Sequence record: NC_022968.1
Direction: 5' to 3' (one strand)
DNA from: Escherichia phage 4MG
DNA length: 64,000 bases
Shown piece by piece: positions 48,824 to 63,970 of the stretch; the stretch's first letter is position 1, and each line of letters starts with the position of its first letter. Both the position numbers and the translations under genes were made by a program. Below the pieces are notes generated by a model that was not told the origin of the DNA, searched no databases, and saw only the letters and a program-made list of their open reading frames with translations.

Positions 48824-48871
48824 TATTTGCTGCCGTCAGGCAGCGCCGCAAAAATCCAATAGGAGATTTTC

Positions 48872-49281: not shown

Positions 49282-49286
49282 TTCGC

Positions 49287-49315: not shown

Positions 49316-49354
49316 CACTGCATACAAAACAAATCCATAAAGGAGAAATAAAAC

Positions 49355-49760: not shown

Positions 49761-49769
49761 GGATAAAAG

Positions 49770-50859: not shown

Positions 50860-50867
50860 GAGATGCC

Positions 50868-51466: not shown

Positions 51467-51470
51467 TACC

Positions 51471-51899
51471 ATGATAAAACATTGCCACAATTGCAGTGCC
51501 TGTTGTGAAGTTATCGCTATAGACAACATCACACACGAAGACTTCCACGAAAAGATCAGGACCGGAAGAATATCCGCTATCCACGGGGAGATGATGAAAC
51601 CAATCTCCAGGGATGAGGCCTACAAACGGAATCCTCTTGTTGTTACAGGTCGTGAGGAAGTTGGTAAAGGAACAAAACACTTCACCAGCTACTTTACCTG
51701 CACAAAGCTGAAAGACAACAAGTGCTCAATGTACGAGGATCGCCCGTACATGTGCAGCGGGTATCCGTTCTATGACCGGGAGCCTGTTGACACACAATCC
51801 CACGCTTCTCTGTGCAAGACACAGCTACGCAGGAAGGACACCCCGTACTCACCAACATGTACGTATGTCCCAACACTAATCGCGGTCAGAAATATCTAA
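51471..51899 (+). CDS. Cys-rich protein, putative metal-binding (CxxCxxCC)
   Basis: ATG in frame of track ORF; CHNCSACCEV plus later Cys pairs. Confidence 0.4.
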   Translation: MIKHCHNCSACCEVIAIDNITHEDFHEKIRTGRISAIHGEMMKPISRDEAYKRNPLVVTGREEVGKGTKHFTSYFTCTKLKDNKCSMYEDRPYMCSGYPFYDREPVDTQSHASLCKTQLRRKDTPYSPTCTYVPTLIAVRNI

Positions 51900-51923
51900 C
51901 CCACACAATAATGGAGCTTAAAG

Positions 51924-52481
51924 GTGACTAAGAAAAGAACAGAACTCAAGTTGTATAGACTAGTTTTCATGCTGGACCATATCAAAGAGTGCGATGTTGA
52001 TGAGACTGGGTATTTGATATATCCAACAACAGACAATAAGTTGTACGACATATACATACTTGCTGAAAATAAAGAAAGTGTCATATTCAGGGCGGGAAGC
52101 TCCATAGCGGATCGCCAATCCTATTTTGGGATTGGTAATTTTTGGGGTGATGTAGAGGTCCTGAAAGTGGAAGAGATCCCCAGTGAAGACTATAAGGAAT
52201 ATATCATCACCGACACCCCTTTTGAAGGGGGTGGATTAAAGGTCTGGTGTTCAGGACCTGGTTATGAAAAGAGTAAATGGGAAGAGCTATGCGATGTCAA
52301 AGAAGGTACTAATATGCTCCGTGTATCAGACCTCAATGCTCACGCCGGGTGTGGTGCAGTACCTGCCAAAACGATAGAGGCTGCGCTTGAGAGATACAGG
52401 CTAGAAAGGGCAGAGCAAGAGCGCAGACACAAGGAGCGGGAGGAACGGAAGCTCAAGAGGCAGGCAAAGAAAGTAAAGTAA
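51924..52481 (+). CDS. hypothetical protein with basic coiled-coil C-terminus (185 aa)
   Basis: Track ORF. Confidence 0.45.
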   Translation: MTKKRTELKLYRLVFMLDHIKECDVDETGYLIYPTTDNKLYDIYILAENKESVIFRAGSSIADRQSYFGIGNFWGDVEVLKVEEIPSEDYKEYIITDTPFEGGGLKVWCSGPGYEKSKWEELCDVKEGTNMLRVSDLNAHAGCGAVPAKTIEAALERYRLERAEQERRHKEREERKLKRQAKKVK

Positions 52482-52491
52482 CACACAACAA

Positions 52492-52519
52492 GGGAGCCTG
52501 AAGAGGCTCCTTTTCTTTT
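52492..52519 (+). terminator. intrinsic terminator (GGAGCC-loop-GGCTCC + TTTTCTTTT)
   Basis: Hairpin and T-run right after stop at 52481. Confidence 0.55.
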
Positions 52520-52603
52520 ATCTAAAGTGGCACATCAATTTCCCTTGACCTGAAGTGTCCCGTCGATTATACTCCATCTATCAATTACACGAGGAGAAAT
52601 TTT

Positions 52604-52717
52604 ATGACTGGACTTGAATTTTTAGTGCTAAGTGCGTGGGTGTGCTTCATGCTGTTCGGAAGCATTGGCCTGCTTCTGTGGGTATCTGTTGGTCCAGTGG
52701 CTAAGAAGGACGAATGA
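52604..52717 (+). CDS. tiny membrane peptide (37 aa)
   Basis: Not in track; GAGGAGAAATTTT SD; hydrophobic. Confidence 0.3.
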   Translation: MTGLEFLVLSAWVCFMLFGSIGLLLWVSVGPVAKKDE

Positions 52718-52893
52718 TGGAACTGATTATCTTGTGGGGACTGCTGATCCTCTGTGTTGTCCTGATAGTGCTTGCTATCTGCGCCATCTTCAGCGATGAC
52801 GATGACGACACGCCTTCCTCCGGCTCAGGCACTGTTGATACCGCTATGCTGATCACCACACAACAGGCTATGGTTGTCACCATGATTTTATAA
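52714..52893 (+). CDS. small membrane protein with acidic tail (59 aa)
   Basis: Not in track; coupled start; hydrophobic N-terminus then DDDDD. Confidence 0.3.
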   Translation: MMELIILWGLLILCVVLIVLAICAIFSDDDDDTPSSGSGTVDTAMLITTQQAMVVTMIL

Positions 52894-52905
52894 GGAGAAC
52901 ACAAC

Positions 52906-53133
52906 ATGTTTATATTCAGCAAAGAAGTGGTCAACACCCTTCTGAAAGAGGCCCACCAGGAATTAACAAGGGTTGAGGATGCCCTGCTTGCACTTCACGA
53001 CAGGGGGTACGGAATGTGCTCTGAAGAGTTCGTTTCCCTGATGGAGTATCGCAGACTGACAAAGAATTCCATTGAAGATCTGGAGAAGAAGTTCAAAAGA
53101 CTTGGGCTGATTGAGGAGATCCTGAAGAAATGA
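52906..53133 (+). CDS. hypothetical protein (75 aa)
   Basis: Track ORF; AAGGAGAACACAAC SD. Confidence 0.45.
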   Translation: MFIFSKEVVNTLLKEAHQELTRVEDALLALHDRGYGMCSEEFVSLMEYRRLTKNSIEDLEKKFKRLGLIEEILKK

Positions 53134-53369
53134 AAGAGCACGAGTTCAAAATACGTTTCGACAAAGCCACAGGTGAGTGGCGTGTATGGGTGAAGGTTCC
53201 GTTCCTGTTCTTCTGGACCTGCTGGCAGGTTGTTTTCAAAACCCAGAATGGCATATACGGAAATCCGTTCTTTGATAGCGAAAGAGACTGCGAGAAAGGC
53301 ATCGAGAAGTGGAAGCTGGAAAACGCACCGGACTATGAGCGTTACAACACAACCCACCGCAAACTCTAA
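53130..53369 (+). CDS. hypothetical protein (79 aa)
   Basis: Track ORF; coupled start. Confidence 0.45.
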   Translation: MKEHEFKIRFDKATGEWRVWVKVPFLFFWTCWQVVFKTQNGIYGNPFFDSERDCEKGIEKWKLENAPDYERYNTTHRKL

Positions 53370-53378
53370 GGAGAACAC

Positions 53379-53666
53379 ATGGCTTTCCACAAGGTTGTAA
53401 AAGCGCCTGCGAAACGGGCGCATATAAAGAATTACCCACACAAGAAGTCTGAAGCGAGAGACCGAAGAGTGAAGTGGTTATGGGACTATACAAAATCACT
53501 TCTTGGGGTTATCCTCGTAAACAGCGGCTATCATAAGTTTCACTTCTACGAACAATGGAGTGCTGTGAAAAAAGAGCTTAAAGAACTCGATGCTTACGAT
53601 GAGCGAAACACCTGGCTCATTATCTCAGATGTTAAGTGGGAGCACAACAGATTTTATCGGTGGTGA
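53379..53666 (+). CDS. hypothetical basic protein (95 aa)
   Basis: Track ORF; AAGGAGAACAC SD; last gene of rightward block. Confidence 0.45.
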   Translation: MAFHKVVKAPAKRAHIKNYPHKKSEARDRRVKWLWDYTKSLLGVILVNSGYHKFHFYEQWSAVKKELKELDAYDERNTWLIISDVKWEHNRFYRW

Positions 53667-53679
53667 CCACACAAAAGGG

Positions 53680-53708
53680 TTGACGTAAACTGTCAGCCCT
53701 GTTATAGT
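53680..53708 (+). promoter_or_regulatory. sigma70-like promoter TTGACG-N17-TATAGT firing into the ORF-free island
   Basis: Hexamers read directly 14 nt after last + gene; no ORF with SD follows; coordinates +/-2. Confidence 0.45.
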
Positions 53709-54433
53709 CATTATACGCCACATCTCCTGAAGCGGGAGGATACAATCACCAGACCTGCGTGAAAGGTTGTACACCCTGTTAACATTCTGTCATGTCGATA
53801 AAACACCATTTCATAAACATATACCCCACAACATGTCGATGCTATAAACATGTCTGAAGTGACCCAGCAAATTAGCCGGGGACTAATCGCCTTGCGATAT
53901 ACCCACCCCTCCCCCGCCCGGAGGGAAACGTAAACAGGCCCCTCTCTTTGTGTTTTCTGGCACGAAAATATCCTGAAGAGGCAGGGCCTCGAAGACAGGT
54001 GTTTCTGGGCGCAATCTCTATGTCTGATGTGTTAGACGGACAATCACAGCCCCTCCGGGTTGTCAAGGATCTTTACAAAATATCTGAGAGGTCTGACCAC
54101 GAGACCCTATCGAGTTTTTGGCACGATGATTGCATGATGATTACGTGGCGCAACTAATGATTACAAGTGCAACTATTAGCAATGTGACAGTTTACACCTG
54201 TTACAGCACGATTTGCTCTTGACTTGCTTATATTTGTGTGAATGAGCCTATTTAACATAATACACGTTATGCGAACCACAGATCACCGGGAGACAGGCCA
54301 TATAGTCACATATGTTATCATTGCATCAGTGAACCATACCACAAGGCAACCAATAGCCTGCTACATGTTACCACCACGACAGTTTCACGCTGTTATTATT
54401 CATTTTGTGGGGTGTTTTGTCGATGAGAATACA

Positions 54434-54446
54434 AATGATAATCATT
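54434..54446. promoter_or_regulatory. Fur-box-like palindromic 13-mer AATGATAATCATT
   Basis: Identical to the central 13 nt of the E. coli Fur consensus GATAATGATAATCATTATC; second identical copy at 54584-54596. Confidence 0.4.
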
Positions 54447-54583
54447 CTGAATACGATTTCGATTTCAGTTTCGAAATGAAAACCATTCTCAAATGGAAAA
54501 TATTTTGTAAATCTGCCATAAAAAGCTTGACACAGAGGGAAAAATGTGTTTAGCATTTAAGCCTATCTTGAGCATCCAACCGC

Positions 54584-54596
54584 AATGATAATCATT
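54584..54596. promoter_or_regulatory. Fur-box-like palindromic 13-mer AATGATAATCATT (second copy)
   Basis: Exact repeat of 54434-54446, 150 bp away. Confidence 0.4.
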
Positions 54597-54782
54597 AACG
54601 TTAAGCCTTGCTACGCCTGGCTTTAATAGACTTTTCCTATCAATAAAAAGCTTGACAGTTTACACCTTTTCATGCTCAAGAAAACCGCTTTTCATCGGGC
54701 ATCTAGCCCGGTTTACAACATGATTAATCATGATTTGTCAATCATTAAACATGATTAAACCGCTTTTGATCTTCATAACCTG

Positions 54783-54802
54783 GCGACACAATAACACGAG
54801 GG
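54783..54802. repeat. left arm of perfect 20-bp inverted repeat GCGACACAATAACACGAGGG
   Basis: Exact reverse complement of 54976-54995; arms 173 bp apart with nested 11-bp inverted repeat. Confidence 0.7.
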
Positions 54803-54975
54803 CGATCATGCGATAGCGTGATCGGTGTTATCGTGGCGAGGTTATAAAATACTTCAACTATGCAATAGTTGCATTATGAATTATTCATTGTTCTAGTCAT
54901 CTTGTCTGTTAACGCTTAGGCGCTAACGAGCCACGATAACGCGAACGAAAACGATATTTATTATCGTTTGAGTTA

Positions 54976-54995
54976 CCCTCGTGTTATTGTGTCGC
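54976..54995. repeat. right arm of perfect 20-bp inverted repeat CCCTCGTGTTATTGTGTCGC
   Basis: Exact reverse complement of 54783-54802. Confidence 0.7.
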
Positions 54996-55131
54996 TCGCT
55001 CCGCTCGCGCCACTCACCCCGATAACGCGAACGATATTTTTATTTGACAAAAGATGATTACTATGCTCAAAAAAGACAGTTCACACAAAGGGTTAGATGA
55101 GAAAAGTTATCATTTCAGGGCTTTTGCTTCG

Positions 55132-55327
55132 TATTCACTCAATTTGCATAAAAACACGGTGTTTATTCACTTGATAACCTGCGTTATCATTTTTGGGGTG
55201 TGAGTGAGTCAAAGGCGGGTAATGATACACGATTAAACGCAATATAACGCGTTTTGAGAGGGTTTATCTGTTAGGCTTGCCGTTGTATGGCTTCAAAGAG
55301 ATCTCTTTAAATTCACTTTTTTGCATA
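55132..55327 (-). promoter_or_regulatory. regulatory cassette C: two conserved boxes (ATTCACT-N-TTGCATA type) about 179 bp apart, with AAAGAGATCTCTTT palindrome
   Basis: Boxes at about 55132-55150 and 55311-55327; paralogous to cassettes at 56538-56732 and 61218-61414. Confidence 0.5.
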
Positions 55328-55376
55328 AAGACGGGTAAAGATTTAGTGTTTTGTTTGGGGTGTTGGTATGATATGC

Positions 55377-55400
55377 AAAAAGCCGGGGATTATCCCGGCC
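55377..55400 (-). terminator. intrinsic terminator of leftward block (GCCGGGGA-UUA-UCCCGGC + UUUUU on minus strand)
   Basis: Hairpin and U-run immediately downstream of last minus gene (stop at 55420). Confidence 0.6.
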
Positions 55401-55419
55401 TTACTTGGTGTGACTTTGA

Positions 55420-55635
55420 TCAGATAAACATTGCAGCATAATGATCGTAAAGGTCTTGCGCTTGTCTGGCAGGCCAGCGGCTTTCATCCACCGGGACACG
55501 TAGATCAATCGGGCGGCGATCTTTCAATCCGTTAACATGAAAAAATGTTTCACCTGTAAGCTGTACGATCTCCAGTTTAACGAGGTTGTCAGAATCTTTT
55601 ACGGTCTGCTGAATGAGAATAGTAGTCATTTGCAA
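55420..55635 (-). CDS. hypothetical protein (71 aa)
   Basis: Track ORF; coupled to upstream gene. Confidence 0.45.
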   Translation of the reverse strand: MQMTTILIQQTVKDSDNLVKLEIVQLTGETFFHVNGLKDRRPIDLRVPVDESRWPARQAQDLYDHYAAMFI

Positions 55636-56001
55636 TTACTCCACAATTGTGATGGTTTGACCTGGTAACAGGAAATTCCCGGTTTTATCGTCAAAAATTC
55701 CGGTTGCACTTGTTACGGTGACCGTTTCGCCTGATGTCACGATCATAACTTGGGATTCAGTTGGATAATCAAAGGTGTAAAGGCGAGGTGTTAACGGCTT
55801 GCCGCTTTCTTTCGAATAGTTAACATCATAATCATAAACGGCTTGACATTTGATCGCTACCGTTTCGGCCTTGTAATAGTGGTTATCATAGCCATAGCCA
55901 CGCATAAACGGCGCGGATATTTCCAGGACTTCACACAGCGAACCACGAAACAACATATCGCCTTTTTTCAGGTCTAAAAGGTTGATTTTCTTAAGATCCA
56001 T
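55636..56001 (-). CDS. hypothetical protein (121 aa)
   Basis: Track ORF; GAGAGG SD after stem-loop. Confidence 0.45.
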   Translation of the reverse strand: MDLKKINLLDLKKGDMLFRGSLCEVLEISAPFMRGYGYDNHYYKAETVAIKCQAVYDYDVNYSKESGKPLTPRLYTFDYPTESQVMIVTSGETVTVTSATGIFDDKTGNFLLPGQTITIVE

Positions 56002-56024
56002 TTTGTTTACCTCTCAAAGTGTAA

Positions 56025-56043
56025 CGGGGCGACTAGCGCCCCC
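56025..56043 (-). repeat. intergenic GC-rich stem-loop (CGGGGCG-ACUAG-CGCCCCG)
   Basis: Lies between stop of 56052-56429 and SD of 55636-56001. Confidence 0.5.
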
Positions 56044-56051
56044 GATGATTA

Positions 56052-56429
56052 TTACTGATAAGCGGGATCGTTGGTGATGTCGATCCAATGAGTTAAATCA
56101 ATTTTGCCTTTTTCTTTCATTTTCTCGATCAGGCGGTCGGCTAATGTCTCAGAACGAACATAAACATTCTCGCTAAAATCCTGGCCTGTTTCATCGTCGA
56201 TCATTTCGCAATATTCGATTTTACCGATGAAAGCATGATTCAAGGCGTAAGTTTTACCAGTAAACCAGTTGTGTAAATGAATCTCGCATTTATAATCATC
56301 GCTACGGCCTTCAGTAGTCATAACGTCGATCAGATCACCTTTGAAAACTGAAAGATTCCACATGAGATCTTTAGTTTTACCGCCAAAATCTTTAGTTTCT
56401 ACGGTTGAAGCCAGGTTAATGATCGACAT
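56052..56429 (-). CDS. hypothetical protein (125 aa)
   Basis: Track ORF; AAGAGG SD; first gene after cassette D. Confidence 0.45.
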   Translation of the reverse strand: MSIINLASTVETKDFGGKTKDLMWNLSVFKGDLIDVMTTEGRSDDYKCEIHLHNWFTGKTYALNHAFIGKIEYCEMIDDETGQDFSENVYVRSETLADRLIEKMKEKGKIDLTHWIDITNDPAYQ

Positions 56430-56485
56430 TTGATTTACCTCTTAGTCTGTTTTGTTTGATTTCGTTTGTTTGCCCTACGAGATAA

Positions 56486-56514
56486 ATATTACTATAGGGG
56501 GATCAGCACGTCAA
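56486..56514 (-). promoter_or_regulatory. sigma70-like promoter on minus strand, TTGACG-N17-TAATAT
   Basis: Read on reverse complement; about 50 nt upstream of ATG at 56429 and about 25 nt downstream of conserved box. Confidence 0.5.
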
Positions 56515-56537
56515 TAGCTCTTTACATAACTTTACAC

Positions 56538-56732
56538 TATTCACTGTTTGCATCTTTATGCATCGCTATGCAATTCATTTCATGGTGAAATTACTTTTTA
56601 GGCGTTTTTCCGTGTCAAGCTATTTTTATATAGCCTTTAAACGTCCTGTAACGCGTTTTAAGCGGTTTTGCGTCCAGGCTGTACCCTAGCCCGTTTTAAC
56701 GGAGATCTCCCCATATTCACTATTTTGCATAG
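56538..56732 (-). promoter_or_regulatory. regulatory cassette D: two conserved boxes about 175 bp apart, with GGAGATCTCC palindrome and Fur-box-like motifs nearby
   Basis: Boxes at about 56538-56553 and 56713-56732; internal segment shares AACGCGTTTTAAGCGG-like motif with cassettes C and E. Confidence 0.5.
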
Positions 56733-56884
56733 GATTTGAGGGTGTAGTGATAATCATTCTCATCGCCCAGCGATTAGCCCCCGGCTAACTATCTAAATGA
56801 TAGTGATTCTCATTACCGGAATAACAGGCACCTCCGGTGGCTTTCCTCCGGTGTCCATCGTTGCCGCTTCCACAAAAGAATAAC

Positions 56885-56912
56885 AAAAACCGGGACAGAA
56901 AACAAGCCCCGG
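56885..56912 (-). terminator. candidate intrinsic terminator on minus strand (CCGGGG...CCCGG hairpin + UUUUU)
   Basis: Immediately downstream of stop of 56926-57243; loop is long (about 13 nt), so weaker call. Confidence 0.35.
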
Positions 56913-56925
56913 AATTGTAAAGATT

Positions 56926-57243
56926 TTAGCGGATATTTATCCCGGCGGGTAGCCAGTAGCCAGAATAATGATCATGAGGTGTGAACCCGTGGGACGGCTT
57001 TATATATGTAACTGATAACCATTCTCGATCATCCAGATAAAGCGCCTCATCTATTGCCACCACAAAACACAATTCACCTTCACGATCTTTAACGGTTGCG
57101 ATAGCGTGTTTTTCTATCGCCTTTTCAAGTGCAGCCAGGCCGCGCCGGAATTGTTCCGGGCGTGTGCGGTAACCTAAGTTATCCTCAGGGCAAAGTCTGT
57201 TTAAGGTAGCCCAGCTAACCGCAATCATTTTTTGAAGTGTCAT
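56926..57243 (-). CDS. hypothetical protein (105 aa)
   Basis: Internal ATG of track ORF with AAGAGG SD; abuts stop of upstream gene. Confidence 0.4.
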   Translation of the reverse strand: MTLQKMIAVSWATLNRLCPEDNLGYRTRPEQFRRGLAALEKAIEKHAIATVKDREGELCFVVAIDEALYLDDREWLSVTYIKPSHGFTPHDHYSGYWLPAGINIR

Positions 57244-57253
57244 TGTCTGCCTC

Positions 57254-57730
57254 TTATCTGTAACGGTGCATTGATTCACGATAGACCGATCCGCCGTCGA
57301 ACTTCTCCGCACTTCTCAGGGCGTCCACTAGCTCGCACATTTTGCGGAGTACATACGAACAATGATCATTAAAGTCAATGGCTTTTTTAATCATTTCCTC
57401 TTTACTCTCCCCATCAATAAAGACAAGTTGATCAAGGGCGTTATAGTGATCAAGCCAGGCGCGGATCGCGTCATGCTCCAGGGGGCGATCTGTCTGGCTA
57501 AAACTTGACAGGCCGAAAGATTCAAAAGTGTTTACATTGTCCATTAATTCATCATAAGCGGTTTCCCAGCTACTAGCCCAGAACTCAACCGCATCAGATT
57601 GAAAATCAGGATCATCAGGGTCAATAAAACAGATTGAAAAAAGTTGCAGGCCTTCACGCTTTGTTAAGGTATAGCGAGCACTATCAAGGGCGCGTGTTTT
57701 GGTGTCTTCTGGGGTGATTTCATATTTCAT
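57254..57730 (-). CDS. hypothetical acidic protein (about 158 aa)
   Basis: Frame of track ORF; start chosen at MKYEITPED; start uncertain. Confidence 0.4.
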   Translation of the reverse strand: MKYEITPEDTKTRALDSARYTLTKREGLQLFSICFIDPDDPDFQSDAVEFWASSWETAYDELMDNVNTFESFGLSSFSQTDRPLEHDAIRAWLDHYNALDQLVFIDGESKEEMIKKAIDFNDHCSYVLRKMCELVDALRSAEKFDGGSVYRESMHRYR

Positions 57731-57872
57731 TCTTTGATACCTATAAACGGAAAATGTGAGAGATCTGCGGGGCGTAAGTGTTGACTTTGAACCCATTCAC
57801 CAGACATCAGAGCCAGGACACGGGAACCGCGCCAGCGGTAGCGATTCCCATTCAAAAGGTTAACGTAAATGA

Positions 57873-58100
57873 TCATGCGCCGTAAAGACCATCACTATTA
57901 AAATCATCCTCAAAAGAGGCCAAGTATTCGAAAAATTCAAACTCCATCGCGACAACATGTTTAACCAAATCAGCATTTTTGTATTCAGCCGGGGACAGGC
58001 GGATCGGCGCGTCACTATATAGATCCGTAAGTTCGATGTATTCCCCGACCTTTTGAGCGGTTACCGTGTTTTTCTTGTTGTCGAAAATTACTTGTTTCAT
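57873..58100 (-). CDS. hypothetical protein (75 aa)
   Basis: Track ORF. Confidence 0.45.
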   Translation of the reverse strand: MKQVIFDNKKNTVTAQKVGEYIELTDLYSDAPIRLSPAEYKNADLVKHVVAMEFEFFEYLASFEDDFNSDGLYGA

Positions 58101-58321
58101 GATATACGCTCAATAATAATGATTGCTTGCGGGATAGAATCAGGAGTAACGATCAGGGCTTTTGATTGACGAATTTTAAAGCCTAGTTTCGCTTTGCACA
58201 CCGTGGCGGTCATTTTCCGCATTTCAGGATCTACGTTTGCACCTTCACAGAACCATACAGCCTTTTCACCTGCGATAAGGTTGCGTAAAAATTCAGTTTG
58301 CCCGGTTTGATTCTTTAACAT
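58097..58321 (-). CDS. hypothetical protein (74 aa)
   Basis: Track ORF; AAAGGTAAAC SD after stem-loop. Confidence 0.45.
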   Translation of the reverse strand: MLKNQTGQTEFLRNLIAGEKAVWFCEGANVDPEMRKMTATVCKAKLGFKIRQSKALIVTPDSIPQAIIIIERIS

Positions 58322-58342
58322 TTCGTTTACCTTTCAAAGTAT

Positions 58343-58361
58343 GCCGGGGACGTTCCCCGGC
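58343..58361 (-). repeat. intergenic stem-loop GCCGGGGA-CGU-UCCCCGGC
   Basis: Perfect 8-bp stem, about 20 nt upstream of ATG at 58321. Confidence 0.55.
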
Positions 58362-58368
58362 TTGCTGA

Positions 58369-58629
58369 TTAGATTGATTTTTCGATATCGGCTAAAATCT
58401 CTTTTGCAAGAGTATAGTTTACATTCAGATCCCGCGCTATGTCTTCGGCTAACAGTTTACGACCTACGTTACCGAAACTTAACATTCTTTTAACTTCTGG
58501 TAACCCTTTGCCCCAATAGTTATAGCAGGAATCACCGATATATTTTGAGTAAAACGCGTTATCGTTGCGAACTCCACCTAAAACAGCGACATTAACAGAG
58601 ATAACGTGTTTAAAATTGTGCTTTTCCAT
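58369..58629 (-). CDS. hypothetical protein (86 aa)
   Basis: Track ORF; AAAGGTAAAC SD after stem-loop. Confidence 0.45.
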   Translation of the reverse strand: MEKHNFKHVISVNVAVLGGVRNDNAFYSKYIGDSCYNYWGKGLPEVKRMLSFGNVGRKLLAEDIARDLNVNYTLAKEILADIEKSI

Positions 58630-58649
58630 TTTGTTTACCTTTTCGGCTT

Positions 58650-58670
58650 GCCGGGGAGGTATTCCCCGGC
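58650..58670 (-). repeat. intergenic stem-loop GCCGGGGA-GGUAU-UCCCCGGC
   Basis: Perfect 8-bp stem, about 20 nt upstream of ATG at 58629. Confidence 0.55.
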
Positions 58671-58714
58671 CTCAAAAAGATATTAACCGATCCGCGCCTT
58701 GCTTGCAAGCGTTT

Positions 58715-59059
58715 TTATTCATCTTCCCCGTAATCATCGCCAATGTTGAAAATGTCCAGCATATCACCAGCAGCGATCCACAGCAGGTACATTTCCAGGG
58801 TATGGCGATCCATATTATCGATCCCGTCTACCCCTTCACGCTCGATCCCGGTTTCAGCCAGATAATCCCGGATCATTTGATCGGTGTAGGCGCTAAACTG
58901 TAAACCGTCCCGGAAATAGGGCAGGGCTTCAACGGTGGAGGCTTCACAATCCCCAGAGTGGGCGATCTCTTCTACCTGGTCACGGTCACGGAAAATCAGA
59001 CACAACCGACCACAGGAGGAAGACCAATAAACGTTTTTCTTTTTCATGATTAAGCCCAC
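58715..59059 (-). CDS. hypothetical acidic protein (114 aa)
   Basis: Track ORF. Confidence 0.45.
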   Translation of the reverse strand: MGLIMKKKNVYWSSSCGRLCLIFRDRDQVEEIAHSGDCEASTVEALPYFRDGLQFSAYTDQMIRDYLAETGIEREGVDGIDNMDRHTLEMYLLWIAAGDMLDIFNIGDDYGEDE

Positions 59060-59283
59060 ACTTTAGCATAAGAGAAGAGATCGGAAATATAGCCACGATA
59101 CCCGCCGCGCTTGTGATTGCTTGCGTTATTCTTCCAGGCAACAACCACAGATCCCGAACGTTTTACACCACAGAAGATCCCGCGATCCCCACCTTTTCCG
59201 GCTTCTACCCATTGCCCCGGCTGCAATTTTGCAACGTTGGTTTGAGCGTCCCAGATATCCACGGTTTTAGTGTATCGTGCCAT
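59050..59283 (-). CDS. hypothetical protein (77 aa)
   Basis: Track ORF; AAAGGTAAAT SD after stem-loop. Confidence 0.45.
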   Translation of the reverse strand: MARYTKTVDIWDAQTNVAKLQPGQWVEAGKGGDRGIFCGVKRSGSVVVAWKNNASNHKRGGYRGYISDLFSYAKVWA

Positions 59284-59303
59284 AATATTTACCTTTCATT
59301 ATG

Positions 59304-59323
59304 ACCGGGGACAATCCCCGGCC
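59304..59323 (-). repeat. intergenic stem-loop CCGGGGA-CAA-UCCCCGG
   Basis: About 20 nt upstream of ATG at 59283; followed on minus strand by CATAAT. Confidence 0.55.
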
Positions 59324-59335
59324 TGTTAGAATACT

Positions 59336-59677
59336 TTAGCCGATCTGGTTTTCAGAGTCAACCGGGAAAACATCATTTACAATCTCAACAACTACCGCGA
59401 AAACATCCAGAGCATCACGGATCGGCAGGCTATCCGCTTGCTTTACATAGCCTTTCACGCTTTCAAGCTGATAAGAGATGTAATGAGCTTTGCAGGGTTT
59501 TTGTGTGCCGTGATCAATGCTGTTTTCCGTGCGGATCATGATATCCAGGCGATCCCCGTTCACAGCGTCATTGATATGACAAAAACGCAATAACGTTTTA
59601 TCATCGAAACGACGAAAATCACATTTTGCTTTGTCAGTAACGCCAGCCAGGAAGAAAAATTTATTTGCCAGTTCCAT
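59336..59677 (-). CDS. hypothetical protein (113 aa)
   Basis: Track ORF; GAGG SD. Confidence 0.45.
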   Translation of the reverse strand: MELANKFFFLAGVTDKAKCDFRRFDDKTLLRFCHINDAVNGDRLDIMIRTENSIDHGTQKPCKAHYISYQLESVKGYVKQADSLPIRDALDVFAVVVEIVNDVFPVDSENQIG

Positions 59678-59692
59678 TTTTAAAACCTCGTT

Positions 59693-59809
59693 TTAGAATA
59701 AAGATAATAACAGCAGGAAGATCACGAAAGACCACACCAGACGACACATGATCCGCGCCTCAGTGTAAACCGGGTTTTCGGTAGTGTATTCTACTTTGTA
59801 ACCTTTCAT
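59693..59809 (-). CDS. tiny membrane peptide (38 aa)
   Basis: Not in track; GAGGTG SD; hydrophobic C-terminus LVWSFVIFLLLLSLF. Confidence 0.3.
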   Translation of the reverse strand: MKGYKVEYTTENPVYTEARIMCRLVWSFVIFLLLLSLF

Positions 59810-59826
59810 GATTCACCTCACCAGGT

Positions 59827-59847
59827 GACCGGGAACCGCTCCCGGCC
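59827..59847 (-). repeat. intergenic stem-loop CCGGGA-ACCGC-UCCCGG
   Basis: Between 59889-60185 and the 59693-59809 peptide ORF. Confidence 0.5.
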
Positions 59848-59888
59848 TTGTCTGATAATTATTGATCAACCGTTCCCCGTTGTCAAAT

Positions 59889-60185
59889 TTATTTTTTGGC
59901 CTCTTGTGTGGCGTACATTTCAACCAAACTTTGAGCGCTCAAATTATCCACAAAAAAGGATGTCACGGCAACCGCCGGATCACCTTCCACGGCTTCACCT
60001 TCCGGCATTGGTTCGACTTCCGGCGATGGTATGCAAGCCGGATTAATCCAGCGGCGATCCTCGGAATAGCCACGCGCTACAATGTAGCAGGTTAGCGGAT
60101 CGTCGTATGATTCAACAATAAAATCATCACACTGTTTAAGCGCAAGGGCGCTATAAAAACACATTCCGGCGAATACTTCAAACAT
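59889..60185 (-). CDS. hypothetical protein (98 aa)
   Basis: Track ORF. Confidence 0.45.
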   Translation of the reverse strand: MFEVFAGMCFYSALALKQCDDFIVESYDDPLTCYIVARGYSEDRRWINPACIPSPEVEPMPEGEAVEGDPAVAVTSFFVDNLSAQSLVEMYATQEAKK

Positions 60186-60194
60186 GATCTTTAC

Positions 60195-60413
60195 CTACTT
60201 TTTGAGGGTGAGGATAGGGCGTTTATCGCCTTCTTTAACTCCGGGATCTAGCTCATCACAGATCCCGATCTGCTCGCCTTTGCCTAACGTGTATTCGTTT
60301 TCGTACACGTTGCAAGCCTGCTCGGTGGGGAATGTTTTTTTAACATCCCAGCTACATTCTAACTTCATTGAAGTTAGCGAGATATGGCAGGCCATAACGA
60401 TAAACCCGAACAT
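60195..60413 (-). CDS. hypothetical protein (72 aa)
   Basis: Track ORF. Confidence 0.45.
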   Translation of the reverse strand: MFGFIVMACHISLTSMKLECSWDVKKTFPTEQACNVYENEYTLGKGEQIGICDELDPGVKEGDKRPILTLKK

Positions 60414-60649
60414 TACGCCACCTCTTCAAAAGTCGATTCCCAGGCCCCGTGATAATCAACGCCGTTTTCGGTGTCCTCATCACAAGAGTGGATATTATCA
60501 AAAAGTTCGCCGGATGTATAGCCCTCATTCAACATTTCGAAAATTCTTTCTTGTGCTGATTCTTCTAAAAAATCCGCGTGGCGGTCTAATACTTCACCGT
60601 TATTATCTGACTTTTTCCACCAATAAGAGATTTTGATTTCGCGTTTCAT
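60413..60649 (-). CDS. hypothetical acidic protein (78 aa)
   Basis: Internal ATG (MKREIKISYWW) of track ORF with GGAG SD. Confidence 0.4.
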   Translation of the reverse strand: MKREIKISYWWKKSDNNGEVLDRHADFLEESAQERIFEMLNEGYTSGELFDNIHSCDEDTENGVDYHGAWESTFEEVA

Positions 60650-60756
60650 TTTTCGGACTCCAGAATGATATGGATAGCGACAACAGAGCAAGCCGCTACG
60701 ATGAAAGATACCAGCGCCGCCACACACCAAAGGTTTGTATAATCTAACATTTTCAT
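60646..60756 (-). CDS. tiny membrane peptide (36 aa)
   Basis: Not in track; AGAGAGG SD; ATGA overlap with downstream gene. Confidence 0.35.
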   Translation of the reverse strand: MKMLDYTNLWCVAALVSFIVAACSVVAIHIILESEK

Positions 60757-60826
60757 TACCTCTCTTTAAGTGGTGGCATTATTGCCGCCTATGAATAAAG
60801 ATACCATAAGCGGCGCAGATTGCAAG

Positions 60827-61117
60827 TTATTTTTTGATCTGGTTTGTGCGGTTATAGTCCTCATACCGTACACGGGACACGGTGACCGATTGAGGGAGGA
60901 GGCAACGCACACGATCCGCGCGGTTGTCATATTTCTGGATATGTGCCGGGGTATTGTTGCGGGTAAACTTCACGCGTAAACGTAATTTTGTTGGATCACG
61001 GTCATCGATCCCGGTGACCACACCGAACCCAATTTGACCATAATTATGATAAACCATTTTGCCCAAGTATTTGTTTTCAAGAGCATTTTTAGTCAGAGCA
61101 TTCATTACTTTACACAT
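60827..61117 (-). CDS. hypothetical protein (96 aa)
   Basis: Track ORF; AAAAGGTAAAT SD; first gene after cassette E. Confidence 0.45.
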   Translation of the reverse strand: MCKVMNALTKNALENKYLGKMVYHNYGQIGFGVVTGIDDRDPTKLRLRVKFTRNNTPAHIQKYDNRADRVRCLLPQSVTVSRVRYEDYNRTNQIKK

Positions 61118-61168
61118 GATATTTACCTTTTGGTTGTGTGGGCTTCACTATGTCGCCCTACGTGTTAA

Positions 61169-61196
61169 ATATTAACAGATTCACGCCAGGACGCAA
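61169..61196 (-). promoter_or_regulatory. sigma70-like promoter on minus strand, TTGCGT-N16-TAATAT
   Basis: Read on reverse complement; about 50 nt upstream of ATG at 61117, downstream of conserved box. Confidence 0.45.
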
Positions 61197-61217
61197 GAAA
61201 ATTATTAAATCTTTACA

Positions 61218-61414
61218 ATATTCACTGTTTTGCATAAGTATTCAATGATATGCAAATAGTTTCACGTTGTTACTAAATTTAAGCCCTTTTGAGCGTGGCG
61301 CGGTTTCGTGATACCGCTTTAAAGCTCCTGTAAGCCTCTCTAAGCGCTTCAACGTCGAACCCTGGCAAGTGCATCACCTCGCGGAGAAGTCCCCAAATTC
61401 ACTTTTTTGCATAG
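61218..61414 (-). promoter_or_regulatory. regulatory cassette E: two conserved boxes about 177 bp apart
   Basis: Boxes at about 61218-61236 and 61395-61414; paralogous to cassettes C and D. Confidence 0.5.
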
Positions 61415-61440
61415 AAAAAAGGCCGGGGATCGTCCCGGCC
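61415..61440 (-). terminator. intrinsic terminator on minus strand (GGCCGGGACGAUCCCCGGCC + UUUUUU)
   Basis: Hairpin and U-run immediately downstream of stop at 61446. Confidence 0.6.
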
Positions 61441-61445
61441 TCTTG

Positions 61446-61649
61446 TTAGTCAGTTTGTACGGCTTGCCACTGTAAAGCACGTTTGCGATCCGCCAACCGT
61501 TTATTGAGATTTGGATCATAACGGTCTGGCGTCCAGGTTTTGGCAACGCGTTCCGGCTTGTGTAATTTGTCGTTACGTTGGCGGCGCTCGTTTACTTCAC
61601 CATAAGCCAGGCGATCACGCTTGCTTGTCATCTTCTCAATATTTCGCAT
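61446..61649 (-). CDS. hypothetical basic protein (67 aa)
   Basis: Track ORF. Confidence 0.45.
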   Translation of the reverse strand: MRNIEKMTSKRDRLAYGEVNERRQRNDKLHKPERVAKTWTPDRYDPNLNKRLADRKRALQWQAVQTD

Positions 61650-61663
61650 TCTAAACCCTCGTT

Positions 61664-62011
61664 TTATTTTCGTTTGTTGTATACATGTTCAATGATCCGG
61701 CCTTGCTGTTCTGCTAGCTCATTAGCTCGCCATTCTATGATCTCGGTTATCTGCTCTTTTGTGCCTTCTTTGTGATACGTGATAAACCCGCCACGCTTTT
61801 TCACTTCACACAATAGCCCGTTACCCTCAAGATCATTTAATGCCCCAGATCGCCGGGTGTGGTAGTGCTTACCGTGGAACCTATATTCAATATAATGATA
61901 CACTTTCCCGATCCTGTATTCGTAGTAAATCCAGAGCACTCCCCGCCATAGCCTGGCGGGGATCTTCCAGTAAATAGCAGCAGCAGCTACCAAAAACAGG
62001 ATTTTAAACAC
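61664..62011 (-). CDS. hypothetical protein with N-terminal hydrophobic segment (115 aa)
   Basis: Track ORF. Confidence 0.45.
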   Translation of the reverse strand: MFKILFLVAAAAIYWKIPARLWRGVLWIYYEYRIGKVYHYIEYRFHGKHYHTRRSGALNDLEGNGLLCEVKKRGGFITYHKEGTKEQITEIIEWRANELAEQQGRIIEHVYNKRK

Positions 62012-62013
62012 TG

Positions 62014-62580
62014 TTAATAATCCTCTAACATTTCGCGCAGGGCTTCCAGTTCCTCACCTGTAAAGATCTTGCGGAGTTCCTCGCCTGTTTTCTGGCAAGC
62101 AAGATAAATCTCTAAACCTTTGCGGCTATCCTCATCATAACCCATGTTAGCGCAAAAATCAGCATGAGTTTCTGATCCACAATCAGCATCAGCTAGCAGG
62201 CAGTAAAGCACGTTTGCGGCGCAAGGTGTCGCAACATATACACGGTAACCGAAAGACATTGCTTTATTATTGTTGCGTTTGTAATCGTCGCGTGTCCAGT
62301 TTTTCTGATCCACTTGTGCAACTTTCGCGCCAACTTTCGCAAGCTCTCGCGCATCAGTCGGAGTTACGCCACCGTTACGGCCTACACGGTGCCCGGTTCC
62401 CGTTTTAAATTCAGTGCGGTAAACGTTAGCGCCCTTTTCGAAACTCACAAAAAACAGATCCGCTTCCCACTTAGGATCATTGTTAACGCCGCCATATTGA
62501 GCATTAAAAGTAATGCCCTTTTCTTTCAGGAAGTTAGAAACGGCTACGTCTTGATCGTTGAAAGTGATTTTGTTATTCAT
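62014..62580 (-). CDS. hypothetical protein (188 aa)
   Basis: Track ORF; largest gene of the right block; no motif recognised. Confidence 0.5.
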   Translation of the reverse strand: MNNKITFNDQDVAVSNFLKEKGITFNAQYGGVNNDPKWEADLFFVSFEKGANVYRTEFKTGTGHRVGRNGGVTPTDARELAKVGAKVAQVDQKNWTRDDYKRNNNKAMSFGYRVYVATPCAANVLYCLLADADCGSETHADFCANMGYDEDSRKGLEIYLACQKTGEELRKIFTGEELEALREMLEDY

Positions 62581-62675
62581 GATATTTTACCTTTTGTTTG
62601 GTTTGGCATTATTGCCGGGTTATTTCTCTTACTTGGTGGAGCTATCTTAAAGCCCCACCTATTAAGAGTCAACAA

Positions 62676-62861
62676 CTATTTAATAATTTCTTTGCCGAAA
62701 GAATCAAAAGAGGCGATCACTTTTAGATTATCATCTAACAGCTTGCCGGGGATCTTTAGATTGTTGATCCGTTGGCTAGCCTCTTGTTTAACGTCCTCAA
62801 TAGTGCGGCTTGCCGAATTGAAGATCGTTAAAACTTGCCCGTTATCCATGCTTACAACCAT
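62676..62861 (-). CDS. hypothetical protein (61 aa)
   Basis: Track ORF. Confidence 0.4.
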   Translation of the reverse strand: MVVSMDNGQVLTIFNSASRTIEDVKQEASQRINNLKIPGKLLDDNLKVIASFDSFGKEIIK

Positions 62862-62862
62862 T

Positions 62863-63258
62863 TCACACCGCCTTTAAATAATTGTTAGTTACTCGGTAAA
62901 CGTGGCGATAAGCTTGTTTTTTGGTGTGCGGCGCATAGGTCATAGACTGATAAGCCAGATCATAACCGATTTTTTCAAGCCAGTAAAGCGCGGCGCTTTG
63001 CCCTTCATTGTGTGATTGTTCCCGGCGGCGTGGCGATTCCAGGACGGTGACGCCGAACCCGGTATAACCATTTTGCACGGACAGAAGATCCCCACGGTGA
63101 AGCGTGGCGCGGTATTTGTTGATCGTGTTACCGTTGACATCTCGCCCAAAATCAAAGGAATCAATGACCACGAAAAAATCCCCGGTTGTCTGGCGTGAAA
63201 CTTCTTTCAGGCGGTTAACAGCGTCATACAGATTGATTGAGGTTTTAAACTTTGCCAT
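62863..63258 (-). CDS. hypothetical protein (131 aa)
   Basis: Track ORF; AAAGGTAAAG SD after stem-loop. Confidence 0.45.
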   Translation of the reverse strand: MAKFKTSINLYDAVNRLKEVSRQTTGDFFVVIDSFDFGRDVNGNTINKYRATLHRGDLLSVQNGYTGFGVTVLESPRRREQSHNEGQSAALYWLEKIGYDLAYQSMTYAPHTKKQAYRHVYRVTNNYLKAV

Positions 63259-63288
63259 TTTCTTTACCTTTAGTCAGTGCCGGGAACC

Positions 63289-63306
63289 GTCCCGGCTTGA
63301 GTAGAA
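63289..63306 (-). repeat. intergenic stem-loop GCCGGGA-ACCG-UCCCGGC
   Basis: About 25 nt upstream of ATG at 63258. Confidence 0.5.
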
Positions 63307-63337
63307 TTATCGGCTTTTCTTGCCGGGGTGTCAATAC

Positions 63338-63631
63338 TTACAGAAGATTTTTTAATTCTTCGTAAGTGGCGGCGCTAATCTCGGTTACAGATTTAACACG
63401 TACAACATGAGCGCCACAATCAGACCAATAACCGCTTTCGTTCACTTCGTCGATATCATCGAAAGAATAATGGGCGGCGGCGCAACGGTTTTCCGCTTCG
63501 TTGGTTGCATCTTCCAGGGAGTGATCAACAATAAGATCCACGGTCGGGAATTCTTTCCCATCATACATGCAATAGATACGGGCAAGGAAAAATTTTGCTG
63601 GGGCGGTAGTGGTTTTGTTTGTAGTAGTCAT
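63338..63631 (-). CDS. hypothetical acidic protein (97 aa)
   Basis: Track ORF; AAAAAAGGTAATAC SD after stem-loop. Confidence 0.45.
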   Translation of the reverse strand: MTTTNKTTTAPAKFFLARIYCMYDGKEFPTVDLIVDHSLEDATNEAENRCAAAHYSFDDIDEVNESGYWSDCGAHVVRVKSVTEISAATYEELKNLL

Positions 63632-63652
63632 TTTGTATTACCTTTTTTGTGT

Positions 63653-63671
63653 GGCGGGAACTATTCCCGCC
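63653..63671 (-). repeat. intergenic stem-loop GGCGGGA-ACUAU-UCCCGCC
   Basis: About 20 nt upstream of ATG at 63631. Confidence 0.5.
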
Positions 63672-63711
63672 TTGATTTGTAATATAATCGATCTAGCTTA
63701 GGATTGCAAAT

Positions 63712-63909
63712 TTATTTTGCAACATAATCCGGGTTAGGTGTACGGCGTTCAATGATCCGGGCTTCGTACCCGTTGCGGCGATAATCTTTCTTTGTTGCTC
63801 TCGCATCAGACCAATTTGCCTCGGCGCAGGAATCCTCCCAGCCGTTGCAGGTTCTTTCCTGTACGATGATTTCATAAAGCCATTTATTAACACGCGGAGC
63901 CTTTGCCAT
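63712..63909 (-). CDS. hypothetical protein (65 aa)
   Basis: Track ORF; GAGGTAAAC SD. Confidence 0.45.
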   Translation of the reverse strand: MAKAPRVNKWLYEIIVQERTCNGWEDSCAEANWSDARATKKDYRRNGYEARIIERRTPNPDYVAK

Positions 63910-63940: not shown

Positions 63941-63970
63941 ATTATGCGCCGGATTCCCGGCGCTTGTCAA
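63941..63970 (-). promoter_or_regulatory. candidate sigma70-like promoter on minus strand (TTGACA-N18-CATAAT) with stem-loop GCGCCGGGAAUCCGGCGC in the spacer
   Basis: Read on reverse complement at right edge of window, about 30 nt upstream of ATG at 63909. Confidence 0.4.

Follow-up and report, generated by a model that had tools for sequence, protein, structure and literature searches.

A leftward array of small, probably early genes in Escherichia phage 4MG, with sigma70-like promoters and GC-rich hairpins at the probable sites of gene exchange

The 64 000-nucleotide stretch of Escherichia phage 4MG considered here (sequence record NC_022968.1; referred to below as the window) carries on its minus strand, from 55420 to 63909, an uninterrupted and dense run of 25 small genes, which are named g24 to g1 from the first to the last, with g5b between g6 and g5. 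In the list of open reading frames (ORFs), position 63909 belongs to the ATG of the first gene and 55420 to the stop codon of the last. We consider it probable that these genes make up the promoter-distal 8.5 kb of a larger leftward accessory block, of the ‘hyperplastic’ kind, in a PVP-SE1-like phage, that they are early genes, and that sigma70-like promoters and GC-rich hairpins stand at the places where genes are swapped. The phage is a myovirus of the genus Seunavirus, within the Vequintavirinae. The block aligns with Cronobacter phage GAP31 and Enterobacter phage EC152 at ~92% nucleotide identity across 81–82% of its length, and more patchily with other Seunavirus phages (PVP-SE1, SSE121 and the EspYZU phages); the remainder of the window behaves alike. 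To our knowledge, such a block is present in every large virulent phage, and the present one is an ordinary feature, already sequenced, in which all genes are labelled ‘hypothetical protein’ in public records except for one or two labelled ‘membrane protein’. It does provide some useful leads. What the analysis adds is a cassette architecture like that of the PeSL elements of T4-like phages, a division of the genes into backbone and cassettes, and the recognition of g20 as a member of a huge and structurally novel family.

There is good evidence that the genes are real. A Shine–Dalgarno (SD) sequence of the form A/GAGGT(AAA) lies ~5 nt ahead of the start codon in 22 of the 25 genes, and the starts of g6, g5b and g9 either overlap the upstream stop codon or lie no more than 2 nt from it, which suggests translational coupling. 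When the genes are compared with those of eight related phages, substitutions at codon positions 1, 2 and 3 stand at 917:530:2846, and codon changes are synonymous in 2269 cases and non-synonymous in 1145, with the bias present in every gene that has a relative; g1 has no counterpart at the eight loci and has homologues that are 53–94% identical in other Vequintavirinae. The pattern of ribosome-binding sites (RBSs), the codon-position bias and the synonymous excess together imply 25 genuine protein-coding genes rather than chance ORFs, and the substitutions indicate that these are evolving under purifying selection. An initial annotation of this DNA had located the array correctly and had credited its members with good SD sequences, which holds. 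It had counted ~24 ORFs of 36–188 amino acids (aa); all 24 are in the ORF list and the sizes stand, except that g16 may have 34 aa, if the SD-linked ATG at 60750 is taken as its start. The count missed a 25th gene, g5b, which is 98% identical in GAP31, EC152 and LNA4 and 90% identical in the Mydovirus phage KNP2; it is annotated in EC152 and is not annotated at the same position in GAP31.

The coding strand of the block has at least nine sigma70-like promoter sites, scored as matches to the consensus TTGACA-N17/18-TATAAT. Three of these agree with the consensus at 11 of 12 positions: the site before g24 (63941–63970; TTGACA-18-CATAAT), which has a hairpin at 63946–63963 within its spacer, and those in the cassettes before g22 (63279–63334; TTGACA-17-GATAAT, then a hairpin at 63279–63296 of -14.2 kcal/mol) and g12 (59829–59886; TTGACA-17-AATAAT, then a hairpin at 59829–59845 of -13.5 kcal/mol). 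Weaker sites lie in the cassettes before g23 (63653–63709; TTGCAA-17-TATATT, then the hairpin GGCGGGAA..TTCCCGCC at 63653–63671, -14.6 kcal/mol and without a U-tract), g10 (59305–59361; TTGACT-17-TAAAGT, 9/12 and overlapping the 3' end of g11, then a hairpin at 59305–59321 of -16.1 kcal/mol) and g8 (58650–58708; TTGCAA-17-TAATAT, then a hairpin at 58650–58670 of -17.6 kcal/mol), and also before g20 (62638–62672; TTGACT-17-TAAGAT, 9/12, with a hairpin over the -10), g17 (61169–61196; TTGCGT-16-TAATAT), g16 (60798–60825; TTGCAA-16-TATCTT) and g3 (56486–56514; TTGACG-17-TAATAT). Eight of the 13 coding-strand matches within the block are intergenic, against an expected 18.7%, the intergenic share of the DNA (P = 8e-4), and the PVP-SE1 record has promoters at the positions equivalent to those before g12 and g16, and at the distal end a terminator. 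A U-tract comes after just three of the hairpins: the putative intrinsic terminators after g18 (61413–61440, minus strand, -18.7 kcal/mol), after g4 (56882–56912, minus strand, -12.7 kcal/mol) and after g1 (55375–55400, minus strand, -15.4 kcal/mol), which would end units 1 and 2 and the leftward block, respectively. The three units so delimited are what the initial annotation had called operons, which is partly right, as the promoter sites number at least nine rather than three.

Hairpins of the GCCGGGG..CCCCGGC type are confined to the block within the window, and eight of them lack a U-tract. They have predicted energies of -12 to -18 kcal/mol and begin 9–10 nt past the -10 hexamer, apart from those of g24 (in the spacer) and g20 (over the -10). 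The recurrent geometry is a sigma70-like -35/-10 pair, 9–10 nt, a G/C-tract hairpin of 6–10 bp, an AGGT RBS and the ATG; the -10 and the ATG are 46–50 nt apart in six cases, and the stretch between the 3' end of the hairpin and the ATG, which includes the RBS, measures 17–24 nt. Hairpins also precede g7 (58343–58361, minus strand, -17.0 kcal/mol, no U-tract and no good promoter, with a recurrent homology breakpoint at 58361) and g2 (56026–56042, minus strand, GGGGCG..CGCCCC, -12.1 kcal/mol, with a homology breakpoint at 56042–56047). Counted over the paralogous sites and the orthologous ones, the hairpins amount to 39 instances with 19 distinct sequences, in which GC, CG and AT alternatives are found at each stem position and the arms are sometimes swapped (GCCCCA/TGGGGC). 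Such covariation implies that structure is conserved rather than sequence. A 9-bp GC-rich hairpin resembling the intergenic ones (TCCCCGCC..GGCGGGGA) is also found within a coding region, near the 5' end of g19 (61940–61962).

If transcription starts ~7 nt past the -10, only 2–3 nt would separate the hairpin from the predicted mRNA 5' end. In E. coli, 5'-terminal stem-loops are reported to shield mRNA from RNase E-dependent decay (Emory, Bouvet and Belasco 1992), and a hairpin at the 5' end could likewise protect the promoter-proximal mRNA against decay that depends on that end. For transcripts reading through from upstream, the same hairpin would act as an attenuator or a 3' stabiliser; each gene might hence be a transcriptionally insulated module. 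RNase III sites, as in the early region of T7, were also considered for the hairpins and were ruled out, the stems having just 6–10 bp.

The same cassettes mark the places where relatives of the phage differ. A presence/absence matrix for the eight relatives shows that about two thirds of the genes form a syntenic backbone across the genus, and that g1, g2, g3, g4, g5b, g8, g10, g15 and the pair g23–g24 are cassettes found in some relatives only; in GAP31, EC152 and PVP-SE1 the slot of g8 holds a different gene, of 390 bp. Alignments by blastn break at identical positions in independent relatives, at 58361|58622 (g8), 60413|60658 (g15) and 63303|63902 (g23–g24), with further recurrent breakpoints at 56047|56426 (g3), 56931|57253 (g4) and 57730|57875 (g5b), and 28 of the 45 breakpoint clusters fall in border zones that occupy 25.5% of the block (P = 2e-7). 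PVP-SE1 and EspYZU14 lack g23–g24, and in these two phages g22 follows a hybrid cassette composed of a g23-type promoter, a GGCGGG/CCCGCC hairpin and the RBS of g22 itself, which is the footprint expected of recombination between two cassettes. It is proposed that homologous recombination between cassettes during co-infections would swap, insert or delete whole genes, because the cassettes are near-identical linkers, a mechanism that has been shown for the PeSL elements of T4-like phages. The metagenomic contigs L014 and L015, which have an identical g22, present further mosaic variants of the block; L014 has two additional small genes (69 and 71 aa) between its homologues of g18 and g17. A difference of another kind is seen in g13, in which an internal stretch of ~100 bp (59900–60004) is missing in most relatives: the window and GAP31 have the 98-aa form, and EC152 and PVP-SE1 one of ~61 aa. 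Of the eight relatives, six to eight have the breakpoints concerned (~59900 and ~60004), which denote an indel within the gene, not a cassette border.

An early, accessory and host-directed function is well supported indirectly. It is envisaged that host RNA polymerase with sigma70 would transcribe the block right after infection from its many promoters, and that the products would be early proteins, each dispensable by itself, with the host (shut-off) or host immunity as their target, not parts of one machine. The early reading is adopted because of the sigma70-like promoters, the family to which g18 belongs, the PAK_P3 counterpart of g20 and what has been written on the genus Certrevirus. 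The protein g18 (61446–61649; 67 aa, very basic with a pI of 10.5, and present also in Bas54) matches PF08200 (Phage_1_1, the T7 gene 1.1 family) at 41.3 bits (cutoff 21; E = 2e-10) over profile positions 1–37 of 40, and precomputed annotations of other contigs place the identical gene in this family too; gene 1.1 of T7 is a class I early gene. The 188-aa product g20 is 35% identical to gp100 of Pseudomonas phage PAK_P3 (E = 1e-34). The latter lies in the early region gp74–gp112 defined by RNA-seq and is classed as Early (log2 fold change -2.5, adjusted P 6e-7), with ~250,000 reads at 3.5 min against 39,000–58,000 at 13 min in the two deeper replicates, and the genes beside it stand at 44,000–59,000 reads at 3.5 min (PMC4933390). 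In Certrevirus, a sister genus, a region of short ORFs rich in sigma70 promoters has been termed the ‘likely early gene region’ (PMC7344957). The early assignment in the initial annotation is thus supported by several independent indirect lines, namely the promoter enrichment, the promoters of the PVP-SE1 record, PAK_P3 gp100 and the T7 gp1.1 family.

A number of observations weigh against the reading given so far. The literature searched holds no transcript, 5'-end or protein data for 4MG or any of the Vequintavirinae, so that timing, promoter use and the roles of the hairpins are inferred. In the 10-kb region there are 28 promoter-like matches, against 20.5 ± 4.4 after shuffling, and several of the assigned promoters are weak (8–9/12). 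No convincing promoter accompanies the hairpins that precede g7 and g2, and protection of a 5' end cannot therefore be their sole role. The published description of PeSL elements includes an AT-rich tract upstream of the -35, whereas the -35 of g22 begins 3 nt past the upstream stop codon, which leaves little room; any AT-rich tract there would be coding sequence. Breakpoints at gene borders are also to be expected from selection against disrupted genes, whatever the recombination mechanism. Finally, no product can be given a function, the only Pfam matches being to families without one, and searches for function among the larger products, described below, returned nothing.

A candidate regulatory sequence found in the long gaps may bear on the question of timing. 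Three paralogous non-coding modules, all on the minus strand, each open directly past a U-tract terminator with TATGCAAAAnAGTGAAT and a short palindrome (GGAGATCTCC or AAAGAGATCTCTTT); ATGCAAAAnAGTGAAT with the palindrome is the candidate protein-binding sequence. Module C (61140–61420) has direct copies of the motif ATGCAAA(N3-4)GTGAAT at 61383–61412 and 61211–61235 and an inverted copy at 61250–61265, followed by the g17 promoter. Module B (56455–56738) has copies at 56701–56730, 56568–56583 (inverted) and 56530–56553, followed by the g3 promoter. In both, the inverted copy (..TTGCAT) comes ~150 nt on, and the second direct copy lies ~25 nt upstream of the sigma70 promoter. Module A (55050–55334) has lost its promoter and kept the second direct copy. 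The six direct copies in the window, against 0.13 expected, are all in modules A–C, and the motif is kept in all eight of the Seunavirus and Mydovirus relatives; in Bas54 neither the motif nor the gap sequence was found beyond a 30-nt patch. A non-coding RNA in the long gaps was considered and rejected in favour of sites acting at the DNA level: Rfam finds nothing in the block at gathering thresholds or at E ≤ 1, and RNAalifold on nine paralogous or orthologous modules gives -2.3 kcal/mol and no supported helices. Upstream of the two main promoters the motif sites are arranged direct–inverted–direct, and they may be operators or activator sites of a regulator that times the block.

A motif of this kind, which is not of the sigma70 type, could bind a phage-encoded or modified factor and so put the genes under regulated expression. 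It therefore lends something to the alternative that the array is not early at all and is instead a middle-phase region or a constitutive ‘moron’ region, in which the sigma70-like hexamers would be due to chance or of minor importance and the hairpins would be only attenuators or terminators. The total of promoter-like matches, just ~1.7 standard deviations over the shuffled expectation, points in the same direction, as does the stem-loop PeSL211/210 of phage RB49, which is an effective terminator in a lacZ reporter. However, the three 11/12 promoters are exactly intergenic and on the coding strand, the matches as a whole are enriched between genes as stated above, and eight of the hairpins lack a U-tract. 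Furthermore, both PAK_P3 and T7 have their homologues among the early genes, and equivalent sigma70-rich arrays of ORFans have been read as early in PAK_P3 (by RNA-seq) and in Certrevirus (by inference). We regard a non-early array as quite improbable and retain the view that the block is expressed early.

Much less can be said about what the products do. The initial annotation had found no motif that could be assigned to any of them. This has to be amended, since two proteins, g18 and g3, score above the Pfam cutoffs; neither family has an assigned function. The protein g3 (56052–56429; 125 aa, phrog_1507) matches PF06019 (Phage_30_8, the T4 gp30.8 family) at 102.5 bits (cutoff 25; E = 2e-29) over profile positions 1–123 of 124; all of its 24 homologues in the database carry the same domain, the best match being 91% identical. 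Its AlphaFold2 (AF2) model, with a predicted local distance difference test score (pLDDT) of 90, is rich in beta structure with one helix, and the predicted fold has no solved structural relative. Pfam recognises no other gene of the block. PHROG families were assigned to 21 of the 24 ORFs scanned, g5b having been left out, and all are ‘unknown’ except that of g12, ‘membrane protein’. The only functional lead for the families of g18 and g3 is that T7 gp1.1, co-expressed with Ocr, brings about an effective shut-off of host protein synthesis (PMC7064336). The two membrane peptides that the initial annotation had singled out, g12 (59693–59809; 38 aa, anchored C-terminally, phrog_10979, homologous to PVP-SE1 gp187) and g16 (60646–60756; 34–36 aa, homologous to PVP-SE1 gp190), bear out that description: each has a single 19-residue hydrophobic segment, with a peak Kyte–Doolittle mean of 2.42 in g12 (residues 20–38) and 2.64 in g16 (residues 14–32), and the PVP-SE1 record gives both homologues one transmembrane segment by TMHMM and Phobius. 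They might serve envelope or superinfection functions.

It can also be proposed that the block is largely an anti-defence locus, in which many of the small proteins, above all the acidic products g5, g9, g13 and g15 and also g20, would mimic DNA or directly inhibit systems such as restriction, CRISPR and CBASS. The four proteins have net charges of -11 to -14, as in DNA mimics; strongly basic products are also present (g10, g17, g18 and g19), and these extremes of charge are suggestive and non-diagnostic. The fast turnover of cassettes between relatives is what an arms race predicts. In the rV5-like phage Bas54, moreover, experiments have identified an anti-defence gene in the array at the equivalent position: bas54_0140, which is sixth in that array, is needed to overcome the defence system DS-28 (10.1101/2025.11.20.689424). 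On the other hand, bas54_0140 has no homologue in the window, and the Bas54 parallel is purely positional and architectural. PADLOC and NCBIfam models gave nothing for the ten largest products, and sequence searches of the PDB with phmmer and hmmsearch (g20, g22, g5, g3 and g9, and family profiles of g20 and g3) nothing significant. No match to known anti-defence proteins or DNA mimics (Ocr, ArdA, Acr) emerged from PADLOC or the PDB, with folds compared for g20 and g3 only and no dedicated anti-defence HMM (hidden Markov model) search made. The initial annotation had looked to structure prediction for anti-restriction or DNA-mimic folds; the models of g20 and g3, however, resemble no solved structure. 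The BASEL study found the Vequintavirinae of E. coli to be ‘exceptionally susceptible’ to restriction–modification (PMC8594841), which argues against potent anti-restriction proteins in the group. The synteny of about two thirds of the genes across the genus is a better fit to core host takeover than to an arms race, and the g20 family, which spans phages of enterobacteria to those of Brochothrix, is hard to square with a target as variable as defence. Thus, we think it unlikely that the block is largely an anti-defence locus, and prefer a set of early genes directed at the host in general; an anti-defence role for products of the block is plausible by analogy only. Overall, the interpretation in the initial annotation is partly supported. 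The backbone genes would be the candidates for core host takeover, and swapped cassettes such as g1–g4, g8, g15 and g23–g24 the most promising ones for functions specific to a host or to a defence system, which ranks the genes for deletion and toxicity screens.

The product that deserves most attention is g20 (62014–62580; 188 aa, phrog_4273), which corresponds to 4MG gp128 at 100% identity. An indexed search returned 20 relatives, and an exhaustive profile search 6312 representatives of 50%-identity clusters at E ≤ 1e-3, of which 2033 remain at E ≤ 1e-10; no Pfam model covers any member of the family, distant ones included, and none has an informative name. Translated searches (tblastn) find it in 279 phage records, all hypothetical, from the Vequintavirinae, PAK_P1/KPP10-like phages of Pseudomonas, Barba phages of Rheinheimera and phages of Acinetobacter and Xylella, and structural relatives in BFVD reach Brochothrix phage A9. 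No close relative was found in ~185,000 species genomes of bacteria and archaea, a search with reach for close relatives, distant homologues being beyond it. In CHA_P1/PAK_P3, Barba14S and Sano the gene always lies amid small hypothetical genes, with no informative neighbour. Among 166 diverse members the residues kept in at least 81% are W38, D41, G61-x-G63-H64-R65, P119, D131, C143, G147-Y-D-x-D151-S152, K154, Y159, C162 and a C-terminal D-Y. The AF2 model is of high confidence (pLDDT 92.9), and the predicted fold has no solved structural relative.

Most likely, g20 either acts as a small enzyme or binds with high specificity to a target common to many bacteria, given its invariant D/H/R/S/K/Y/C core, its breadth over phages whose hosts are Gram-negative or Gram-positive and the abundance of its early transcript in PAK_P3. 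Against the first of these options it must be said that the enzyme idea is drawn from the conservation pattern and nothing else. A fuller proposal, that g20 represents a large, phage-restricted and uncharacterised family with a catalytic-looking core, whose members are abundant early proteins acting as a new enzyme on, or inhibitor of, a host component shared by distant bacteria, is put forward tentatively, and we would not be surprised to see it fail. A single biochemical study of g20 would annotate thousands of phage genes.

The remaining genes, all on the minus strand, can be described in the order of their transcription. In unit 1, a variable cassette consists of g24 (63712–63909; 65 aa, basic, phrog_34889) and g23 (63338–63631; 97 aa, acidic, phrog_33895). 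They are followed by g22 (62863–63258; 131 aa, basic, phrog_4495), which is 4MG gp126 at 100% identity, and g21 (62676–62861; 61 aa, phrog_19614), and, between g20 and g18, by g19 (61664–62011; 115 aa, basic, phrog_7903), which has a GTG start and a hydrophobic N-terminal segment. The middle unit opens with g17 (60827–61117; 96 aa, basic, phrog_13696). After g16 comes g15 (60413–60649; 78 aa, net charge -13), an inserted cassette present in one of the eight relatives (FENT2), and then g14 (60195–60413; 72 aa, phrog_12257), with four cysteines and a hydrophobic N-terminus. The latter has a lipobox-like string, ‘VMAC’, with only eight residues before the cysteine and no charged n-region, and was judged unlikely to be a lipoprotein. 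Next are g13 (59889–60185; 98 aa, acidic, phrog_8255) and, beyond g12, g11 (59336–59677; 113 aa, phrog_7366), the variable cassette g10 (59050–59283; 77 aa, basic, phrog_21585) and g9 (58715–59047; 110 aa, pI 4.3, net charge -14, phrog_14450), which starts 2 nt past the stop codon of g10. The replacement cassette g8 (58369–58629; 86 aa, phrog_11050) lies between two hairpins. It precedes g7 (58097–58321; 74 aa, phrog_5988), which has a homologue in rV5/Bas54, and g6 (57873–58100; 75 aa, acidic, phrog_15222), which is ATGA-coupled to g7. The unit closes with g5b (57727–57876; 49 aa), which has an ATGA overlap with both neighbours, g5 (57254–57730; 158 aa, net charge -14, phrog_20562) and g4 (56926–57243; 105 aa, phrog_36803), a cassette in common with GAP31 only. 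Downstream of the second terminator, g3 is a patchy cassette found only in KNP2 among the eight relatives; g2 (55636–56001; 121 aa, no PHROG) is present also in EC152, LNA4 and EspYZU14, and g1 (55420–55629; 69 aa, no PHROG) is represented by homologues in a small number of phages of Seunavirus and of Erwinia.

On the upstream side, the array is truncated by the edge of the window, related contigs having at least four further small genes upstream of g24. In L014 and L015 that region encodes a product of 109–112 aa with a weak match to the Pfam family Phage_T4_rIIB, and has a DUF7170 gene on the opposite strand. On the downstream side, an ORF-poor gap of 1.4 kb (54000–55400; GC 0.41) separates the convergent rightward and leftward blocks and is 91% identical to GAP31. 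It has a perfect 20-nt inverted repeat (54783–54802 and 54976–54995), duplicated AATGATAATCATT palindromes, a duplicated ATAAAAAGCTTGACA (plus strand) and a duplicated GATAACGCGAACGA. At the same position PVP-SE1 has 2.2 kb without annotation, and the equivalent 2.5-kb gap of Bas54 tolerates no transposon insertions, according to a HIDEN-SEQ preprint (10.1101/2025.11.20.689424). The gap may harbour a replication origin or serve as a regulatory hub. At the far left of the window, outside the block, ARAGORN and Rfam find two tRNA genes on the minus strand, Lys-CTT and Met-CAT (2032–2107 and 2802–2878); these, near 2–3 kb, are the only Rfam matches in the window at gathering thresholds.

Comparison with known systems can begin with the closest. 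PVP-SE1 (gp181–gp196) and GAP31 (GAP31_048–068) have genes and order as in the block, with 70–100% protein identity, and the PVP-SE1 annotation already includes both membrane peptides, the terminator at the distal end and two of the promoters. The differences are in the cassettes: neither phage has g1, g2, g3, g8 or g15, only GAP31 of the two has g4, g5b, g10 and g23–g24 and, in both, other genes occupy some of the slots. The rV5-like phage Bas54 (MaxBurger) has the same general layout as 4MG, that is a rightward block, a gene-free AT-rich gap (1.4–2.5 kb) and a leftward array of small hypothetical genes (from bas54_0135 onward). In the 35 kb compared, however, only g7 and g18 have homologues in Bas54, and both of these are in its rightward block. 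By HIDEN-SEQ, 146 of the 227 genes of Bas54 are dispensable (10.1101/2025.11.20.689424), an analogy that favours dispensable, accessory genes in the block as well.

More distantly, the early region gp74–gp112 of PAK_P3 resembles the block in being a long array of small ORFans with multiple predicted sigma70-type promoters and a homologue of g20, gp100, whose transcript ranks with the most abundant early ones (PMC4933390). PAK_P3 differs in belonging to an unrelated genus, Nankokuvirus, with another host, and in that its early expression has been measured; homology between the two arrays was checked for g20 alone. The class I gene 1.1 of T7 (PF08200) and gene 30.8 of T4 (PF06019) are, like g18 and g3, small; these model genes are non-essential and of unknown function, and membership of their families gives no mechanism for g18 or g3.

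The system closest in architecture is that of the PeSL elements of T4-like phages, in which sigma70 promoters are combined with GGGG..CCCC stem-loops, an SD sequence and an ATG, in five positional subclasses that include stem-loops placed between -35 and -10, overlapping the -10 and downstream of the -10, and which mediate modular shuffling (PMC2839356, PMC4122927). The cassette parts in the phage pairs concerned (RB49/phi1, PST/T4 and nt-1/KVP40) are alike, with a sigma70-like promoter, a G-tract/C-tract stem-loop, an SD sequence and a start codon, and in the block the stem-loop likewise lies in the spacer (g24), over the -10 (g20) or just past it (g8, g10, g12, g22 and g23). As with PeSL elements, the cassettes are concentrated among small non-core ORFs, and indel or replacement junctions between close relatives fall at them. 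By the criteria of promoter, stem-loop, SD sequence with start codon, and junctions, the sequences of the block cassettes match the PeSL type. The commonest position of the stem-loop is not the same, being downstream of the -10 in the block, in the spacer or over the -10 in phi1, and upstream of the promoter in PST. The block also differs in lineage, the Vequintavirinae not being T4-like, and is known here from sequence alone, whereas promoter and terminator activity and mini-circles have been described for PeSL elements. If the likeness holds, cassettes described so far in T4-like phages would be a more general plug-in device for gene exchange, and the cassette borders would offer a practical rule for the engineering of broad-host-range therapeutic phages.

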